DNA of 20,766 bases from Abditibacteriaceae bacterium (GTDB lineage Bacteria; Armatimonadota; Abditibacteriia; Abditibacteriales; Abditibacteriaceae): NCBI GenBank assembly GCA_031372065.1, contig JANMKN010000292.1:1-20766 (forward strand), in the 5' to 3' direction. How positions within the stretch are numbered: position 1 is the stretch's first letter; each line of letters begins with the position of its first letter. This document shows positions 3,479 to 15,252 of the stretch, piece after piece. A program made the position numbers and the translations under genes. The notes under the pieces were generated by a model that worked only from the letters and a program-made list of their open reading frames with translations, made no database searches and had not been told where the DNA came from.

Positions 3479-3568
3479 TTAGGGCCGTTTTGCGTGCGGC
3501 GTGGTGGTGGTTTGTCCGTTCGCCACAGCGTTTAGACGTCTGGGACAGCGTTTAGACGTTTGGGACAT
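3479..3568 (-). CDS. possible 29-aa micro-ORF (MSQTSKRCPRRLNAVANGQTTTTPHAKRP)
   Basis: SD-like GAGGGAGAGG 7 nt before ATG at 3568; no recognisable homology. Confidence 0.3.
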   Translation of the reverse strand: MSQTSKRCPRRLNAVANGQTTTTPHAKRP

Positions 3569-3573
3569 CGTTT
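3525..3573. repeat. 20-bp tandem duplication (2 copies plus a partial third)
   Basis: ACAGCGTTTAGACGTCTGGG (3525-3544), ACAGCGTTTAGACGTTTGGG (3545-3564), ACATCGTTT (3565-3573). Confidence 0.9.
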
Positions 3574-6272: not shown

Positions 6273-8939
6273 ATGGTAAAATTTGCTCCGATGATGTCCG
6301 ACGAACCACACCAACACCACGCGGAAAATTCGCTAAACCTGCAAAATGGCACGCAAAGCGGCACTCAGAATGGCGCGCCGCCACGTCTCGCACCGCCGTT
6401 TGCGATGGTAGCTTTGGATTGCGGGCAGTCATCCTTCGACCGCGAACTGACTTATACCGTGCCCGAAAATTGGCGCCCGTTTATGCGCACCGGCTTCGCG
6501 GTTTTAGTGCCTGTCGGACGACAAATGGTGACTGGATTCATCACCGGATTCAGCCAGACAGCCGATTTCGACGGCCAAATTCGTCCGTTAGCGCGATTAT
6601 TATCCAAAGCGCCGCTTTTTGACCGCAATTCGCTTAAATTAGCGCGTTGGATGAGCGCTTACTACCATTGCCCGCTCAATTTTTGCCTTGATTGTTTCAT
6701 CCCGCACGGTTGGCAAGTTGCGCTGGAACGGCGCTTTGTTTTGGCTTCGCAAGATCACCACGAAAACCTGCGTTTGCTGCGCGATTTATCGCGCAGTCCG
6801 CGTCAGGCGCAAATTTTTCAATTGCTTATCGAAACCGCGCGGCCTATGACGCAAAAGGAAATCGAAAAAGCACTTGGCGGCGCCAAACTCAGCGACGGCT
6901 TGAAAAAATTAGTCGAAGACGGCGCCGTGCAAATGAACGAAGAAGTTCTCGATTCGGGCCAAAAACCGCGCCGCGTTTTGGCGGTGCGCGCCCTACCCGA
7001 CCTGGCCCCCGACGAAGAAACGTGGCTCGCTCTCGAAAAAGCCGCGCCCAAACAAGCCGAGGCGCTGCATCGCTTGTTGACATTCACAACGCCCATCGCC
7101 GCCGCGCAACTCGCGCGCGAGGAAAACATGGATTCGGCGCTTTTGCGCGCGCTCGAAAAGAAAGGCTACGTCGAATTTTCGCATCTCGAAATTCGCCGCG
7201 ACCCAACAGCCGATATGCCCATCGCCGATGTCGGCAAAGTAGTTCTCACCGACGAACAAAAAAACGCCGTAGCCGAAATCGAAGCCGCGCTGCATTCCAG
7301 TGGGCAGTGGGCAGTGAGCAGTGGGCAGAAAACACAGCCCTCAGCAGAGCCACCGACCACCGACCACCGACCACCGACCACTGTTCTTCTGCACGGCGTC
7401 ACCGCCAGCGGCAAAACCGAGGTTTACCTGACGGCCATTGAAAAATGCCTGCAAATGGGCCGTCGCGCTTTGGTCTTGGTGCCGGAAATCGCGCTTACAG
7501 CGCAAACGGTGGAGATTTTCCAGCGGCGTTTTCAAGAACGCGTGGCGATTTTGCATTCGGCGCTGGGCGCGGGTGAGCGCTTCGACGAATGGCGCCGCGC
7601 CCGCAGCGGTAAGGCTGACATTGTTGTCGGCGCGCGTTCGGCGATTTTCGCGCCGTGCCGCAATGTCGGCCTGATTATCATTGACGAAGAACACGATCAT
7701 TCTTATAAACAAGATTCCACGCCGCGTTATCACGCCCGCGATTTGGCTTTAAAGCGCGCTTCCTATGAAAACGCCGTTGTGGTTTTGGGTTCGGCCACGC
7801 CCAGCCTCGAAAGTTACTATCGCGCCACGCGCGGCGAATTTACGCACGTCAAAATGACAACGCGCGTCGGCATTCGCGTCATGCCCGAAGTCGAAACCGT
7901 TGACATGACCGGCGAAGCGCAAATGGGACTTTTGCCGCCGCTGTCACGCCGCTTAAAAGAAGAACTTTGCGCCACTGTCGCGCGCGGTGAACAAGCGATT
8001 TTGTTCCTTAACCGGCGCGGTTTTGCGACTTATGTGCAGTGCCTCGAATGCGGCCACGCCGAGCGCTGCGAAAACTGCGATGTGACGCTGACTTATCACA
8101 AAGGCGACGGCATTTTGCGCTGTCATCACTGCGATTTTCAGCGCGAAGTGCGCCAGGAATGCCCGCAATGCAAGGGCTGGATGATTGGTTTCACCGGCAC
8201 CGGAACCGAGAAAATCGAGGCCGAAGTCGCCGAATTATTGCATAAAAACCAGCTCAACACCAAAATTTTGCGCCTTGACCGCGATACGACGATGCAAAAA
8301 GGCGCGCACGCGCGGATTTTGTCGGAATTTCGTCATGGCCGCGCGCAAATTCTCATCGGCACGCAAATGGTGACGAAGGGTTTGGATTTCCCGAACGTGA
8401 CTTTGGTGGGCGTGATTTCCGCCGATGCCGCGTTGAATGTGCCCGATTTTCGCGCGTCGGAGCGCACTTTTCAGCTTTTGGCCCAAGTTTCGGGCCGCGC
8501 CGGACGCGGAAACCGTCCGGGCCGCGTTTTGGTGCAAACTTTGACCACCGACCACTACGCCATCGAAGCCGCTTGCCAACACGATTACGATTTGTTCATC
8601 AATCAGGAAATCGAATCGCGCCAATCGCCGTGCTATCCGCCGTTCACGCATATCGTGAACGTGATTTCCAGCGACGAAGATTTAAACATCGCGCGCGGAC
8701 GCTTGGAAAAATTAGCGATTCGTTTTCACGACGCGATTGCCAAAAACGGCGGCGGAACCGAACTTCTCGGCCCGGTAGATTGCCCTTTGGCGCGGGTTAA
8801 AAACAAATTTCGCTTTCATTTGATGCTGCGAGATCGCAATCGCCCGCGCCTGCATCGCGTGCTGGCGGTTTACGACGAACTGCCCCAAGAAGCACGCAGC
8901 GGTCTGATTGTTGATGTAGACGCCATGACGACTTTGTGA
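6273..8939 (+). CDS. priA: primosomal protein N' (replication restart helicase)
   Basis: LTY-VP/VPVG 3'-binding domain, HGVTASGKTEVY, DEEHD, GSATPS, four CxxC zinc motifs, GTQMVTKGLDFPNVTLV, QVSGRAGR. The true start may be ATG 6291 or 6294. Confidence 0.97.
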   Translation: MVKFAPMMSDEPHQHHAENSLNLQNGTQSGTQNGAPPRLAPPFAMVALDCGQSSFDRELTYTVPENWRPFMRTGFAVLVPVGRQMVTGFITGFSQTADFDGQIRPLARLLSKAPLFDRNSLKLARWMSAYYHCPLNFCLDCFIPHGWQVALERRFVLASQDHHENLRLLRDLSRSPRQAQIFQLLIETARPMTQKEIEKALGGAKLSDGLKKLVEDGAVQMNEEVLDSGQKPRRVLAVRALPDLAPDEETWLALEKAAPKQAEALHRLLTFTTPIAAAQLAREENMDSALLRALEKKGYVEFSHLEIRRDPTADMPIADVGKVVLTDEQKNAVAEIEAALHSSGQWAVSSGQKTQPSAEPPTTDHRPPTTVLLHGVTASGKTEVYLTAIEKCLQMGRRALVLVPEIALTAQTVEIFQRRFQERVAILHSALGAGERFDEWRRARSGKADIVVGARSAIFAPCRNVGLIIIDEEHDHSYKQDSTPRYHARDLALKRASYENAVVVLGSATPSLESYYRATRGEFTHVKMTTRVGIRVMPEVETVDMTGEAQMGLLPPLSRRLKEELCATVARGEQAILFLNRRGFATYVQCLECGHAERCENCDVTLTYHKGDGILRCHHCDFQREVRQECPQCKGWMIGFTGTGTEKIEAEVAELLHKNQLNTKILRLDRDTTMQKGAHARILSEFRHGRAQILIGTQMVTKGLDFPNVTLVGVISADAALNVPDFRASERTFQLLAQVSGRAGRGNRPGRVLVQTLTTDHYAIEAACQHDYDLFINQEIESRQSPCYPPFTHIVNVISSDEDLNIARGRLEKLAIRFHDAIAKNGGGTELLGPVDCPLARVKNKFRFHLMLRDRNRPRLHRVLAVYDELPQEARSGLIVDVDAMTTL
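7298..7383. repeat. heptamer tandem-repeat hairpin-like element inside priA
   Basis: (CAGTGGG)x4 with one CAGTGAG variant plus CAG, a 21-nt spacer, then (CCACCGA)x4 plus CCACTG; translated in frame as SGQWAVSSGQKTQPSAEPPTTDHRPPTT. Confidence 0.9.
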
Positions 8940-9982: not shown

Positions 9983-10035
9983 TTTTGAAGTGTTTCTATG
10001 GCTTGAGCAGAAGCGCACAGTGGAATTCATCATAA

Positions 10036-10073
10036 AAAAAAGGCCCGCTGCAAATTTGCAACGGGCCTTTTTT
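10036..10073. terminator. bidirectional terminator between convergent mtnA and the Fn3 gene
   Basis: A-tract-GGCCCGCTGCAAATTTGCAACGGGCC-T6 hairpin. Confidence 0.85.
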
Positions 10074-10085
10074 CTGCTTTCAGCC

Positions 10086-11006
10086 TCACACGGCCAGTTC
10101 AAGCACTTCGCTAACCGGGCCTTCGCCGTGTTCGTTGACGGCGCGAATCATGAAACGCACTGTCCCGCCCGCTGGCAGATTCAGCACGGTGGCGTCGCTG
10201 TCATGCACAGTTTGGTTGAGATTGAAATGCGCGTCGGTGCCGACGATTTGCACATAAACGTGGTAACTGGTGGCCAAATCGCTATCGCGCCAATCGAGCA
10301 TGACGCTTTGCGGCAACACGCCCGCGTGCGCCACGAAAGCTTTGATGCTGCCCGGCGCGCCGACCACAGCCGGAGGCACAAAACCGAAATCATACCAACG
10401 CGCGTCGTCGCCCGGCATCAGACTGGAAAGTTCTTTAATGAGATTGCGCAAGCGCCCCACAAGCGTGCGAATCGCCGCGTCGCGCGCTCTTTTGGCGTTG
10501 AGATTGGCGGTTTGCGCCGTGATTTCGCCGCCAATAGCGCCGATTAATTGCGTGTGCAGCGCGGTGATGCGCGTCGCTGTGAAGTTGAGTGGCGCATTTT
10601 CGTGTGCGCTATGACTTGTCAGATAAGCGGCCAGCGTTTCGAGTAGCAGCGCCAAATCATCCGGGTCGTGCGGCAGTGCCAGCGTGCGATGCGTCCAACC
10701 GGCGGCGTTCCAAGGCTGCGAATAATCGCGTCCCAGATGCGGCTTGAGCAAATCGCGCCCGGTGAGTATTTCGGGCGTCATTTGCCGCACCACAGACTGC
10801 CGTGTTTTGCTGGCGCTTGCTTTTACCGTTCGCGTGCTGACAAAATTCCTCTGCGCCGTGACCAACGCCGCACGATCTATCAGCACATTAGATTCGGTGT
10901 TATGCGCCACACCCAGCGTCGTTTCATGCAGATGCAACCCCGCCGCTGCCATCTCCGCCTGCCGCAAAAGCGGCCCGACTTTGTTAAAAATAGGATTTTC
11001 CGCCAT
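10086..11006 (-). CDS. cytoplasmic protein with a duplicated helical region and a C-terminal fibronectin type III domain
   Basis: GGAGG RBS. Fn3 pattern VMLDW...ATSYHV...VLNLPAGGTVRFMIRAVNEHGEGPVS; two helical modules ending QPWNAAGW and ARWYDFGF; no signal peptide. Confidence 0.85.
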   Translation of the reverse strand: MAENPIFNKVGPLLRQAEMAAAGLHLHETTLGVAHNTESNVLIDRAALVTAQRNFVSTRTVKASASKTRQSVVRQMTPEILTGRDLLKPHLGRDYSQPWNAAGWTHRTLALPHDPDDLALLLETLAAYLTSHSAHENAPLNFTATRITALHTQLIGAIGGEITAQTANLNAKRARDAAIRTLVGRLRNLIKELSSLMPGDDARWYDFGFVPPAVVGAPGSIKAFVAHAGVLPQSVMLDWRDSDLATSYHVYVQIVGTDAHFNLNQTVHDSDATVLNLPAGGTVRFMIRAVNEHGEGPVSEVLELAV

Positions 11007-11056
11007 TTTATGCCTCCCAGAAGAAATATAACCAGCAAAAAACAGTCAACGACCCT

Positions 11057-11304
11057 TTTTTCCTTCCTCCAGAATGCCCGTAGGAAGTTTCGCGCACTTT
11101 TTCCTTCCCTCAAAATGCCCGTAGGAAGTTTCGCGCACTTTTTCCTTCCCTCAAAGTGCCCGATAGGAAGCTGCGGGCGTTTTTTGCTTCCCTCAAAATG
11201 CCCGCAGGAAGCTACGGGCATTTTTTCCTTCCCTCAAAGTGCCCGAAACTTCCTACGGGCACTTTTTCCTTCCCCCAAAATGCCCGCAGGCTTCCGAAGA
11301 ACAC
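11057..11304. repeat. tandem array of six 41-42 bp hairpin-containing units
   Basis: Units start at 11057, 11098, 11139, 11181, 11222 and 11263. Each has a near-constant linker TTTTTCCTTCCCTCAAA and a palindromic arm RTGCCCG...CG(G/C)GCRY around a variable core; unit 6 is degenerate. Confidence 0.93.
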
Positions 11305-11333
11305 TTTTCACACTGCAAAAATGGATTACTCTT

Positions 11334-11364
11334 ATTTTATCACGCTTTGCGGCAGCGTTGGCAA
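11334..11364 (-). promoter_or_regulatory. candidate sigma70-type promoter upstream of the repeat array
   Basis: Extended -10 TGATAAAAT (11342-11334) and TTGCCA (11364-11359, 19-nt spacer), about 30 nt before the array. Confidence 0.4.
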
Positions 11365-11427: not shown

Positions 11428-12177
11428 TCAAATACGTTTCAGCCACAGATGTCGAATTGTAATATCCGGGATTTTATCTCCCGTTTCTTTGTAGATAAGA
11501 GGATTGCCTTTATCATCTTTTCTATCGTGTTGGGTAACATGGACAGCCTCGCTTAAAGCGGTAGCTTTTGAACGACTGCACGGCGAAGGGCCTGCTTTGG
11601 TAGTAATATTCGACGGCTTCTTATTTAACGCCTGTTTTAATGATTCTGTGCCGCGTTTCTTTTTAGGGTCTATCTCATAGTCGGAGCGAGCGTAACCAAC
11701 CATCATCGCCTCAGTCATCGCCCACGCATAGCGCCCATCTACGAAGCGAATTAAGCCCTCGCTGCAATAGCAGGAGCCAACCGTGTGGGTTGAATCAACT
11801 GGCTTGCATTCGATGAAAAGGCCGTCATCAGAATGTAATTCAACTTCGGGACGCCCAATTATATCAACAAAAAGGTCGGGCATTTTGTCAATGTCTTTGC
11901 CAAGATAGTTGGCAAATTTCGGTTCACGATACACGCGAAAAATATCAAGATTAAATCCATCCACGATTCGCTTGTTCAGAACTTTGTTGCAAAGTATGAG
12001 GCGTAGATGGTGAGTGATTGTGTCTTCATCTGCCTTCGCCCAATCAAACCCGGCGGGCGGCTGTGTTCGGAGTAAATCCCAAGCCACAACCATAGCTTCT
12101 TCCACAATTAAAAATTGCGCCTTTGAAATTTTTGTATGCGGCGGAAGGGGCAACTGGGGTTGCTCATACATCAGCAT
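11428..12177 (-). CDS. putative PD-(D/E)XK nuclease partnered with the methyltransferase
   Basis: MPDLFV...FIECK catalytic-like triad, then YCSEGLIRFVDGRYA...MMVGY; starts 3 nt after the MTase stop. Confidence 0.7.
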   Translation of the reverse strand: MLMYEQPQLPLPPHTKISKAQFLIVEEAMVVAWDLLRTQPPAGFDWAKADEDTITHHLRLILCNKVLNKRIVDGFNLDIFRVYREPKFANYLGKDIDKMPDLFVDIIGRPEVELHSDDGLFIECKPVDSTHTVGSCYCSEGLIRFVDGRYAWAMTEAMMVGYARSDYEIDPKKKRGTESLKQALNKKPSNITTKAGPSPCSRSKATALSEAVHVTQHDRKDDKGNPLIYKETGDKIPDITIRHLWLKRI

Positions 12178-12180
12178 ATT

Positions 12181-15100
12181 TTAGTCCTCAAAAATATCCA
12201 TGTAATTTCGCACAATTTCTGCCGCGCACAAGCGCGCACGCGTTGGCGTCCAGTAGCGATATTGATTTAACATGGCGACGGCTAAACCGCCTTCAATTGG
12301 GTAGAAGATGCGCGTCGCGCCATTTTTACTGGCTTCTTTTACGATCTTGCGCCACAAATCTTCATCGGGAGACGGCATTTTGTCACTCTCGCCGATCAGC
12401 AAAACACCATAGGGCGTTTTATCCGAAGGTGACCCAGAAAAAGCAACCAATCGTTGATTAGTTTGCGGCTGCCAGAAAGTGAGATTCGACTCGCGCCCCA
12501 CGACATTGAAAAACGGTTTTAGAAGTTTCATCAACCGTTGACGAAAAGCTTCAAATTCTTCAGGGTTTGGCGCGTTACAGGCGCGTTGGCGCGCTGATTC
12601 GTAAGGCATCCCGACAGCGAGCGTATCGCGGATGACTTCCATGTCGAGTTCGTCCAAGCCATAGAGTCCCGCAAAGAAAGAGTCAATATCATCGAAGACG
12701 TTCATGTCTTCTTTAATCAATCGCTCACTTAGACGCGCAATAGTCTTTTCCTGTGCGGACGTGAGTGAGTCGAGAGGGATGATGGGGCAGTCATTTATAT
12801 CGCACTTGTAAAATCGTCGGCGCTCTGCCCCAAACACAGGGCTATTCAACAAAGCATAGTGCATCCAAATGTCGCTATGCATAAACAAATGGATATACTG
12901 CGCCAGTAACTTCTCTTGAGGATGTCCCTTGGTTGAATAGCCATAGAAACTCTTGTCATACACTACATCATCAAAGCTCAACAGGGCACGACCATTTTCT
13001 TTTTCAACGCCAGGTGATTCCTTTATCAAAACTAATGGTGCTTGATAAACATCACGAGTGCGTGGCCACGCTAACCGCGCACGATTGAATTTCTTTTCGA
13101 CCTCGTCTGCTTTCACATAAAATCGTGGTAGTTTTTCATTGTCTAATTCCGGCAGCCCGCGCAAGAACCCTGCATCTCTGCTTTCCTGTCTATCTATAGC
13201 AATATAACCTTGACGACTCTTCAGTTGTAAATCATCTTCCCAATACTCTCCCAGTGGCCGCCCCTCAGCCTCTTTCATCTTTCGCACAATCTCAATATCC
13301 AGCGCCGTTCCAACCGTCAATGCCTTCCATAACCACGGCTCATCGAAAGTTGCTTCAACCTCCACCGGAGTTGCTGACTTAGAGTCAATCCACATTTCCC
13401 CACGCCGATTGAGTGCTTTGTCGTAATAAGGCGTAACAAAATGTAAACGATGACCACTTTTCGGCTGGCGATTGGAGGCAAACAAAAGCATGATTGGCGG
13501 CTTTATCTCCGGCCAAACTTGAGTTTCACGGGCATTTGTGCAGTTAATGATGCCGTTGACTTCGAGCGATTGAAAAAGGGTTTTACGCGCTACGGAAGGA
13601 ACGTCTTCCTTCTTAAACAAAATGCGCGCAGGTAATGCCATTGCGATGCGTCCACCGGGCACGCACCATTCGGTAGATTTCCAAAGAAACGGCAAATCCG
13701 GCGCGCTATCGGGATTGTGATAGGCCACTGCCAAATCCTCGTCGCCCTTGCGTCGGATGATGTCCTTGCTGACTTCATTTAACTGAGCCGCGAGTGATTT
13801 ATGCTTTTCGTCAAAGCTCGTCCACGGTGGATTGCTTACGACAATGTCGAATTGGCCGTCAAACTTACCTGTGTATTTTGGATTCAGGCTACCTAAAACC
13901 GGCCCGCCCTGAGCGTCATCGTCTTCTCGGCATTTGATGAGAACAGTATCCCGCAGATTTTCAAAAATCAACTTCTTCGGCGGATTCGGGTCGGGGTCAA
14001 GCTCAATGGCTGTGAGATAGAGGCTAAGAGCGGCAAATTGCAAAGCCGATTCGCTAATATCGAAGCCCTTGATCTGCTCCATCAAGATTTTACGAATGGC
14101 AGCCGTATCGGGCCGTTCATCAGTTGCTTTCCAAAGTTCACGATAGAGACGATGAAAAGCAATCACCAAAAAGACACCGGCGCCGCAAGCCGGGTCAAGA
14201 ACACGGCATTTGTGGGCGTCTGGCAAGCCATCGAAAACCTCGCCAACTAATGTCTCGGCGATATTGCGCGGCGTATAATGCACGCTCGTGGAAGCGGCGT
14301 CTGGGCCCCACTTCCAAGAAAACTCTTCATAAACCTGACTGAGCAATCCAACGGGGACATGGGCAAAATCAAAATCATTCCATAAAGGAAGTTGATAATT
14401 GCCCTCGCCCGTCGCCTCATAAGCCCGTGTAATTGCGTTGAGGTGCGAAAAAATCTTTTCATTAGATTTCTGCCCAACGCTTTGAAAGAAATTCAAGCCT
14501 CTGCCTGTTAACGGCAAGAAATCTCCGTTGAAAGTGTCATCAAGCCATTGGCAGGTCTGAGCAGCATTTTCAGGATTTGAGAAGCAGTCATCTAATTTTT
14601 GTGTTTGCAACGCGATGCGATGAGCATCATTTTCGTTAACGATTTTTCTATCACGTAAGAAACGCAGGAACAACGCCCGCCCTACCAAGGAAAGAACATC
14701 ACGTCTATCTAAATCGCACTCAACAAGTTCTTTAGCTGCCTGATTCAGCAACTTGAACATCTGGTCAAAAACCAACGTGCCGCTTGCCGCTTCTTTTTTT
14801 CCGTCGTAATGTCCCCGCGCCAAGCGAGGGAAAAAAGACAAGGCTTTTTCGCTGCCTGCTGTGTATTCTTTCCAAGGCAAACCTTTTTCCTTCAACGCAA
14901 CAGAAACAATGGATAACTGACCGGGACTAAGCCGCGCCACATAAGCACGCTGCCCACGGCAGGCCACGGCGTGTCGCAAGCTCTGGATTTGTTTTTCTGA
15001 TTCTTGTGGAGATTGCGAGAGCCGCCCTGCATTTACAACGAACAAGAGCGGGCGTCCTTGGCTTTCGACTACATAATCCGGTGACAACTCCAAACCACCG

Positions 15101-15252
15101 CGAGGCTCTATAAGGTCAAGGTAGTCGAGTGTTTCCGGCAACGGCTCGCGGAGAGACTTAATGCTACCGTCGGGCACACCGTATTTTTGCAGTTCAGTGC
15201 TGAGGTTCACGGTTTCTTGGGCAGGCATTTTAGTTGTATGCAGTATGGTCAA
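12181..15252 (-). CDS. large N6-adenine DNA methyltransferase (Eco57I/type IIG-like architecture)
   Basis: HYTPRNIA (motif X), VLDPACGAGVFL (motif I), GFDI, FDIVVSNPPW (motif IV) and a C-terminal TaqI-like target-recognition region. Likely ATG start at 15228; lower GC than the flanks. Confidence 0.9.
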   Translation of the reverse strand: MTILHTTKMPAQETVNLSTELQKYGVPDGSIKSLREPLPETLDYLDLIEPRGGLELSPDYVVESQGRPLLFVVNAGRLSQSPQESEKQIQSLRHAVACRGQRAYVARLSPGQLSIVSVALKEKGLPWKEYTAGSEKALSFFPRLARGHYDGKKEAASGTLVFDQMFKLLNQAAKELVECDLDRRDVLSLVGRALFLRFLRDRKIVNENDAHRIALQTQKLDDCFSNPENAAQTCQWLDDTFNGDFLPLTGRGLNFFQSVGQKSNEKIFSHLNAITRAYEATGEGNYQLPLWNDFDFAHVPVGLLSQVYEEFSWKWGPDAASTSVHYTPRNIAETLVGEVFDGLPDAHKCRVLDPACGAGVFLVIAFHRLYRELWKATDERPDTAAIRKILMEQIKGFDISESALQFAALSLYLTAIELDPDPNPPKKLIFENLRDTVLIKCREDDDAQGGPVLGSLNPKYTGKFDGQFDIVVSNPPWTSFDEKHKSLAAQLNEVSKDIIRRKGDEDLAVAYHNPDSAPDLPFLWKSTEWCVPGGRIAMALPARILFKKEDVPSVARKTLFQSLEVNGIINCTNARETQVWPEIKPPIMLLFASNRQPKSGHRLHFVTPYYDKALNRRGEMWIDSKSATPVEVEATFDEPWLWKALTVGTALDIEIVRKMKEAEGRPLGEYWEDDLQLKSRQGYIAIDRQESRDAGFLRGLPELDNEKLPRFYVKADEVEKKFNRARLAWPRTRDVYQAPLVLIKESPGVEKENGRALLSFDDVVYDKSFYGYSTKGHPQEKLLAQYIHLFMHSDIWMHYALLNSPVFGAERRRFYKCDINDCPIIPLDSLTSAQEKTIARLSERLIKEDMNVFDDIDSFFAGLYGLDELDMEVIRDTLAVGMPYESARQRACNAPNPEEFEAFRQRLMKLLKPFFNVVGRESNLTFWQPQTNQRLVAFSGSPSDKTPYGVLLIGESDKMPSPDEDLWRKIVKEASKNGATRIFYPIEGGLAVAMLNQYRYWTPTRARLCAAEIVRNYMDIFED

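Follow-up and report, generated by a model that had tools for sequence, protein, structure and literature searches.

Tandem DNA arrays upstream of genes for small helical-Fn3 proteins have periods that follow the number of protein modules

In a 20,766-nt stretch of DNA (the window, which is the whole contig C151 of the 6.14-Mb assembly G000), an array of six 41-42-bp units lies directly upstream of a gene, P0001, that encodes a 306-residue protein. In the P0001 family, the period of the array follows the number of helical modules in the encoded protein: one module goes with 21-bp units, and two fused modules go with 42-bp units. With slightly less than even confidence, we regard the array as a row of phased double-stranded DNA sites for the product of its own gene, whose binding is predicted.

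The array occupies positions 11068-11314 on the reverse strand, and each unit spans four turns of DNA. TRF reports a 41-bp unit in 5.7 copies at 11057-11290, with a score of 278 and 83% matches, and the repeat runs on to 11308; the start-to-start spacing of the units is 41, 41, 42, 41 and 41 bp. In the direction of the gene, a degenerate unit 1 (11314-11274) is followed by units 2 (11273-11233), 3 (11232-11192), 4 (11191-11150, 42 bp), 5 (11149-11109) and 6 (11108-11068), and by a partial seventh linker that reaches to about 11054. Each unit consists of a purine-rich linker and of inverted arms flanking a core of about 10 nt, so the TRF result and the spacing confirm the six units, near-constant linker, arms and short core of the initial annotation. 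Its statement that this is not a CRISPR array also holds, as the core is reused in both orientations (compare unit 2 with units 5-6) and the six neighbouring proteins match no Cas family above cut-off. Rfam returned no family at gathering score for the array, and no CRISPR repeat. Folded as RNA, the array has a z-score of -6.6 (0 of 100 shuffles were equally stable), as any tandem dyad array would. DNA reads from three runs of a single study came from the same strain and gave no informative junction over the array. Elsewhere in the window, a 20-bp repeat of 2.5 copies (3525-3573) adjoins a terminator-like hairpin and is possibly a small orphan array, and two inverted heptamer runs form an in-frame insertion (SGQWAVSSGQ...TTDHRPPTT) inside priA (7298-7381).

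P0001 (10086-11006, reverse strand) begins about 50 bp downstream of the array end, and a ribosome-binding site, GGAGG (11013-11017), is located 6 nt ahead of its ATG. The protein comprises module 1 (about residues 1-112), module 2 (about 113-214) and an Fn3 domain (about 215-306). Its N-terminus is not hydrophobic and carries no signal peptide, and a hydrophobic N-terminal stretch occurs in only 1 of the 82 proteins of the cassette genes described below. The Pfam match to Fn3 falls below the cut-off (E 5e-4; profile matches at positions 213-304), and the fold is confirmed by a match to 7jgu_A (Z 14.4, rmsd 1.5, 87 aligned). The ribosome-binding site and the signal-less Fn3 protein of the initial annotation both stand. 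Its 'helical-repeat' label needs correction, because module alignment and AlphaFold2 give two long helical hairpins and no solenoid. Profile comparison of residues 1-112 with residues 113-214 gives an alignment (HHalign 96%, E 4.7e-9, 71 columns), which indicates an internal duplication; both parts also align with the one helical module of a shorter protein of about 207 residues, which has the Fn3 in common with P0001. We thus distinguish a long form, with two helical modules and Fn3, from a short form, with one module and Fn3. In the AlphaFold2 model of P0001 (pLDDT 97.2, pTM 0.78), helices 10-31, 38-91, 115-131 and 144-196 form two packed hairpins that are followed by Fn3. The short-form model (pLDDT 93.2, pTM 0.49) has one unpaired hairpin, which may be a half that needs a partner. 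By standard rises, a 54-residue helix measures about 81 Å and 21 bp of DNA about 71 Å.

Nothing in NCBIfam or PADLOC scored above cut-off for P0001, and it has no RHH/HTH match and no nuclease, recombinase or reverse transcriptase (RT) signature. Four of five fold searches returned Fn3 only, and the viral one mostly Fn3; no known DNA-binding fold was found in these searches, in which the helical part was barely probed. A search of phages and plasmids gave one weak phage match, mainly over the Fn3 half, and no plasmid match. The modules are near neutral (median charges +2 and 0; Fn3 -4), conserved Arg/Lys columns are present in both, and dN/dS is 0.17-0.42 across 20 paralogue pairs. Kinship of the modules with PF05635 was rejected (profile probability 0.3% or less), as was kinship with DUF6261 (PF19775), for which there was no genome match at E 0.01 and only a weak Atlas lead (score 0.82). 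Relatives of P0001 comprise 1017 cluster representatives at E 0.001 or better and 556 at 1e-10, some of them Fn3-only, and its Atlas neighbours are mostly from Verrucomicrobiota. In the Verrucomicrobial long-form loci L063, L067, L070, L081, L082, L087, L088, L089 and L091, 30-40 codons with aromatic-Asp motifs (YDSG/WDD-like) form either a small reading frame upstream of the gene or an extension of its N-terminus.

The surroundings of the cassette are less constant. A terminator-like bidirectional hairpin (10034-10073), recognized by sequence and absent from the terminator scan, separates P0001 from a convergent mtnA-like gene. Between array and gene, TTGACT (11049-11044) and TATATT (11030-11025), with a 13-nt spacer, form a candidate non-canonical promoter (11025-11049, reverse strand); the promoter scan of this spacer found none. 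On the far side of the array is an extended -10-like motif, TG-n-TAAAAT (11334-11342, reverse strand). The motif noted initially is thus present but not conserved, being the only one among 58 upstream flanks, where 1.9 are expected. Farther upstream, and also on the reverse strand, are a 249-aa gene (11428-12177) and a 1023-aa gene (12181-15252), which had been described as a methyltransferase (MTase)-nuclease pair. Family matches make the latter N6-MTase/type IIG-like, but the 249-aa product has no family match above cut-off and may be a nuclease, given a PD-(D/E)xK-like motif. Both genes are context and no fixed part of the cassette; the mtnA neighbours differ in congeners, and the neighbours also differ among cassette paralogues.

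Arrays of this kind are abundant in G000. TRF yields 488 merged tandem arrays, among which a period of 21 bp is the commonest tandem repeat of the genome (205 arrays), with 63 arrays of period 42, 27 of 41, 22 of 20 and 11 of 63. In total, 343 arrays have periods near multiples of 21 bp, or two turns of DNA, and their sequences are unrelated. By our own gene calling, 309 overlap no gene and are counted as intergenic; of the remaining 34, many represent ordinary repeats within proteins. In the pooled autocorrelation, the sole peaks are at 21, 42, 63 and 84 bp, with shoulders at 20 and 41 and no signal at 7. The suggestion that the array is unlikely to be coding is borne out, as unit-to-unit changes carry no codon phase (0.435 against a null of 0.448, n=170; coding controls 0.58 against 0.46, n=35).

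The genes downstream of the arrays include 15 clusters of 120-330-aa proteins, which profile expansion extended to 82 cassette genes; 66 of the 343 arrays precede one of these small helical-protein genes. Homology among the clusters was shown for some pairs, and the others were grouped by size, helical look and array. An array lies upstream of 62 of the 72 cassette genes with enough upstream DNA; among other genes the figure is 211 of 4240, or 180 of 1304 where gaps are long. This count is partly circular because the seeds were picked from array neighbours. The P0001 family was found by protein search and is not subject to this circularity. A genome-wide REP lacking any gene association, which the initial annotation had set against its proposal, is half borne out: the arrays are genome-wide, yet they are tied to a gene family. 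Array length ranges from 40 to 435 bp (medians 200-290), which leaves a fixed length of 12 sites unsupported. Many unrelated sequence clusters coexist in this one genome, and array sequences are largely unrelated even among the P0001 long-form paralogues. Other repeats were also seen in G000. At C212:8133-8631, a long-form gene and its array are separated by a REP-like hairpin element about 400 bp long, and several further REP-like hairpin families are dispersed in the genome. Six inverted twin arrays could form long hairpins (C14:1618-1941, C173:4398-4773, C29:13495-13744, C325, C373 and C409), and the twin array of C373 is in frame within an 885-aa ORF.

The relation between period and protein architecture is seen within G000 and beyond it. 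All 10 full-length long-form paralogues for which upstream DNA is available carry a 41/42-bp array of their own (the eleventh, C406, has no upstream DNA), and 6 of 7 short-form paralogues carry a 21/22-bp array. Of 26 long forms scored in other genomes, 19 carry 41/42-bp arrays (one was called 21, four have another repeat on top and two have none); the corresponding figure for short forms and 21/22-bp arrays is 14 of 20 (three were called 42 and three have none). This scoring left out duplicates, two loci with no N-terminal match and three with short upstream DNA. Among metagenome short-form loci, 16 of the 20 scored have 21-bp arrays, 12 of 32 having been left out as partial, short or duplicate. 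The scored homologues come from few lineages, and largely from few genomes, so the loci are not independent. The recurrence of arrays upstream of homologues, and with it the proposed pairing of array and protein, is supported. The stronger statement that two modules always give 42 bp was rejected, since the duplicated families C125 (99%) and C257 (92%) have 20/21-bp arrays. The period could also be inherited with a subfamily in the absence of any contact between protein and array. One short-form subfamily (L096, L099, L100 and L102) has a period of 22 bp in place of 21. Three long-form loci of G027 and G044 (L011, L037 and L064) are split by frameshifts, and L011 and L064 keep a 41-bp array.

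Unit symmetry also varies with architecture. The self-complementarity of 21-bp units has a mean z of 1.64 for one-module genes (n=21) and 1.19 in 24 outside loci; for two-module genes it is 0.17 where the two modules were shown (n=9) and 0.53 where they were assigned by length (n=15). The contrast between one- and two-module genes is significant (p=0.0014; p=0.007 at the level of families), under a rule devised after the two-module 20/21-bp exceptions had been seen. Palindromic units for one module and less palindromic units for two are what symmetric dimers and polar pseudo-dimers on duplex sites would give. Individual pairs of paralogues are discordant in sequence: C102 and C41 have upstream DNA that is 97% identical and a diverged central helix, while the proteins of C201 and C247 are 84% identical and their arrays cannot be aligned. 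A simple sequence code is thus doubtful.

Most arrays (277 of 343, of which 56 are near contig ends) have no cassette gene. By sequence, 91 of these orphans cluster with a cassette array, and gene remnants adjoin three. Among the matches listed, the sequence common to orphan and cassette is mostly the array with short flanks, and the identity of orphan and home arrays is only about 77%. A sister of the window array (C222:12252-12352) is found within an operon; the gap that holds it is 436 bp long and measures 30 bp in G002. Congeners also lack the arrays at two sites on C161, which makes three inspected empty sites. Orphans between co-directional genes have no preferred orientation (17 against 15). 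By eye, we saw no shared termini or target duplications at orphans, the congeners being distant for exact junctions, and 137 neighbours, also read by eye, showed no conspicuous transposase-like cluster. Full-length long forms are present in 3 of 41 related genomes and in 3 of 251 genomes of the phylum of G043 (G043 included), and short forms were not found in G001-G003, where 100 kb of sampled sequence held one weak array compared with 5.6 expected. Gene order is strongly rearranged between G000 and G001-G003, and arrays lie at 8 of 11 synteny breaks versus 9 of 24 junctions (p=0.075), which, as a hand tally in array-rich regions, is a hint only. On the best reading, the cassettes were gained patchily, often at hot spots common to restriction-modification genes.

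If the array is indeed a row of DNA sites, the product of its own gene would coat it on one helix face and would likely control a promoter between array and gene. Two turns of DNA would be taken up by each two-hairpin helical bundle. Proteins with one module would form symmetric dimers on near-palindromic 21-bp units, and two fused modules would act as a polar pseudo-dimer; such pseudo-dimers arranged head-to-tail would give the 21-bp direct repeats of other families, and arranged head-to-head the 41/42-bp dyad of the window. Cassettes may further shed array copies into intergenic DNA. This reading is supported by the match of modules and period, the internal duplication, the unit symmetry, the 21-bp autocorrelation, the lack of a codon signal, the dN/dS values, the Arg/Lys columns and the position of promoters: sigma70-type motifs occur in the sense direction in 18 of 59 array-to-gene spacers (two genes were counted twice), compared with 4 in antisense and 3.65 +/- 1.9 after shuffling. 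Counted against it are the near-neutral modules, the two duplicated families with 20/21-bp arrays, the two discordant pairs of paralogues, the smaller promoter excess that upstream flanks show as well, the narrow range of genomes behind the homologues and the window spacer, which has no canonical promoter.

Several other explanations have to be weighed against these phased DNA sites. The one we consider most credible, although improbable, is that expression of the gene is set by the array as an element of DNA shape, bent or cruciform, or as a target of host factors (a nucleoid protein or a regulator), while the encoded protein has another function and does not bind it. The period is kept while the sequence turns over fast, A-tracts favour the sense strand (142 against 55), and the protein charge and the C102/C41 discordance would fit; however, a common factor leaves unexplained why period and symmetry track protein architecture, and why one genome has many unrelated sequence clusters. 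The initial annotation favoured transcription into a structured RNA or leader, and processed RNAs of about 41 nt bound by the protein would be a version of this. Stable hairpins are present, the extended -10 motif lies upstream in the window, sigma70-type motifs show a smaller excess in upstream flanks (5 of 58 against 1.55 expected; 1 in arrays), G-U exceeds A-C (15:8 and 8:4, a weak and non-significant excess), and the 22-bp periods also fit two A-form turns. Yet the enrichment of promoters between array and gene, mostly downstream of the arrays, disfavours a leader; one-module and direct 21-bp arrays have no unit hairpins, greater stability of the sense strand is limited to 12 of 18 and 7 of 15 arrays, and the inverted cores, unoriented orphans and lack of an Rfam match also speak against RNA, which we therefore think very unlikely. 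Least credible of all is the idea that the arrays are unconnected with the gene, whether as neutral minisatellites or as coding heptad repeats. Turnover is fast, and some 21-bp arrays read heptad-like in one frame, but the excess of arrays at cassette genes over long-gap genes (seeds partly array-chosen), the missing codon periodicity and the 20- and 41-bp units that break the frame argue otherwise, and the cross-genome period rule largely refutes this idea.

Two further explanations concern what the cassette does as a whole. In a selfish element, the protein would copy the array or recruit copying machinery, and gene-less arrays would be non-autonomous copies descended from it, comparable to the REPINs of RAYTs. 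This is compatible with the DNA-site reading, and the many orphans, their clustering with cassette arrays, the rarity of gene remnants beside them, the empty sites, the lack of orientation and the scarcity of arrays in congeners with few or no cassette genes all fit it. The protein has no enzymatic signature of the kinds sought, the neighbours held no transposase-like cluster by eye, and neither common termini nor close orphan-home identity was seen, so we rate it as unlikely. Only a little less favoured is a role in defence, where the cassette might act, for instance, as a sensor or decoy and its array as a regulatory or titration element. Of 25 DNA MTase loci, listed independently and defined by Pfam, nine have a cassette gene at a distance of no more than 1.5 kb, compared with 185 of 4512 other genes (p=4e-7), and the many divergent paralogues, their patchy spread and a central helix that varies in one pair would suit a defence function. 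Nevertheless, an MTase lies within 3 kb of only 10 of 82 cassettes, there is no PADLOC match, and common insertion hot spots suffice. The MTase link of the initial annotation is confined to 1 of 11 long forms and holds for cassettes as a class, among which proximity shows shared hot spots and not function.

Taking the phased DNA sites one step further, a speculative and on balance improbable extension is a bacterial satellite-DNA system. Proteins would polymerise on their own arrays, one bundle per two turns, with unit symmetry set by protein architecture, and coated arrays would be copied in the absence of any known transposase, giving about 80 pairs in one genome, whose intergenic DNA would be reshaped by hundreds of offspring arrays. 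If the proteins do read their arrays, they and the arrays would make up an extensive natural collection of orthogonal protein-DNA pairs, based on a helical scaffold not described before and governed by a geometric rule (one module for 21 bp, fused modules for 42 bp), and a source would be at hand for a class of intergenic repeats with lineage-specific insertions, some of them inside operons. With 1017 protein clusters matching P0001, the class is widespread.

Compared with known systems, the cassette fails membership of CRISPR-Cas, TIGR-Tas and REPIN-RAYT on the features tested. CRISPR-Cas needs unique 25-45-nt spacers and cas genes, and the window array has neither. As far as described in the part of the TIGR-Tas source available to us (PMC12045711), those arrays resemble ours as loosely conserved repeats next to a small gene, with stem-loop variants, and give rise to 36-nt RNAs upon processing; P0001, however, has no Nop domain, its family has a period of 21/42 and not 36, we saw no paired variable spacers, and the promoter is usually downstream of the array. 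The initial statement that no Nop-domain/Tas protein is present agrees with searches of Pfam and PDB sequences, which gave no Nop match, and with the model of two hairpins and Fn3. REPIN-RAYT, from the portion of its description consulted (PMC3116915), likewise joins a gene to cognate repeats, with many gene-less extragenic copies and several repeat groups per genome. The cassettes differ in having no tyrosine (HUH) transposase domain (no Pfam or NCBIfam match in P0001 or 20 other cassette proteins) and in a unit that is a one-sided tandem array of 150-350 bp rather than an inverted doublet. BrickBuilt, a MITE of Porphyromonas gingivalis (PMC4596501), is a many-copy intergenic tandem repeat with a 23-nt unit; judging by its abstract, it forms a single sequence family that has a leader, a tail and inverted ends and no cognate gene, unlike the many sequence families of cassette arrays, which are tied to genes and in which we saw no common ends. 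Intergenic heptamer repeats are also dispersed, and their report, as far as it was accessible (PMC4679880), raises a repeat-binding protein as a mobile unit; the G000 arrays differ in their lack of 7-bp autocorrelation. Genes for PF05635 four-helix-bundle proteins in G000 (C312:12542-12853, C5:10554-10871, C173:19530-19844 and C153:24701-24991) have short inverted repeats on both sides and no profile likeness to the P0001 modules, and the C312 gene sits within the span of an MTase-like ORF, as if inserted. Our literature search, which did not extend to subscription papers and supplements, found no published description of a cassette of array and gene. The layout resembles that of the centromere-operators ParR/parC and SopB/sopC, where tandem phased sites lie beside the promoter of the gene that encodes their presumed coating protein, the sopC units being 43 bp long with an inverted repeat. 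By analogy, the cassettes would share an array next to the promoter of a gene with a predicted array-coating product. They differ in being chromosomal, in comprising about 80 paralogous cassettes, and in having unrelated array sequences on a fixed 21-bp grid; no partition ATPase adjoins the long- or short-form genes, and no neighbour is consistent among 18 family genes. What is new is the module-period rule, the symmetry trend, the position of the promoter and the dispersal of orphan arrays.
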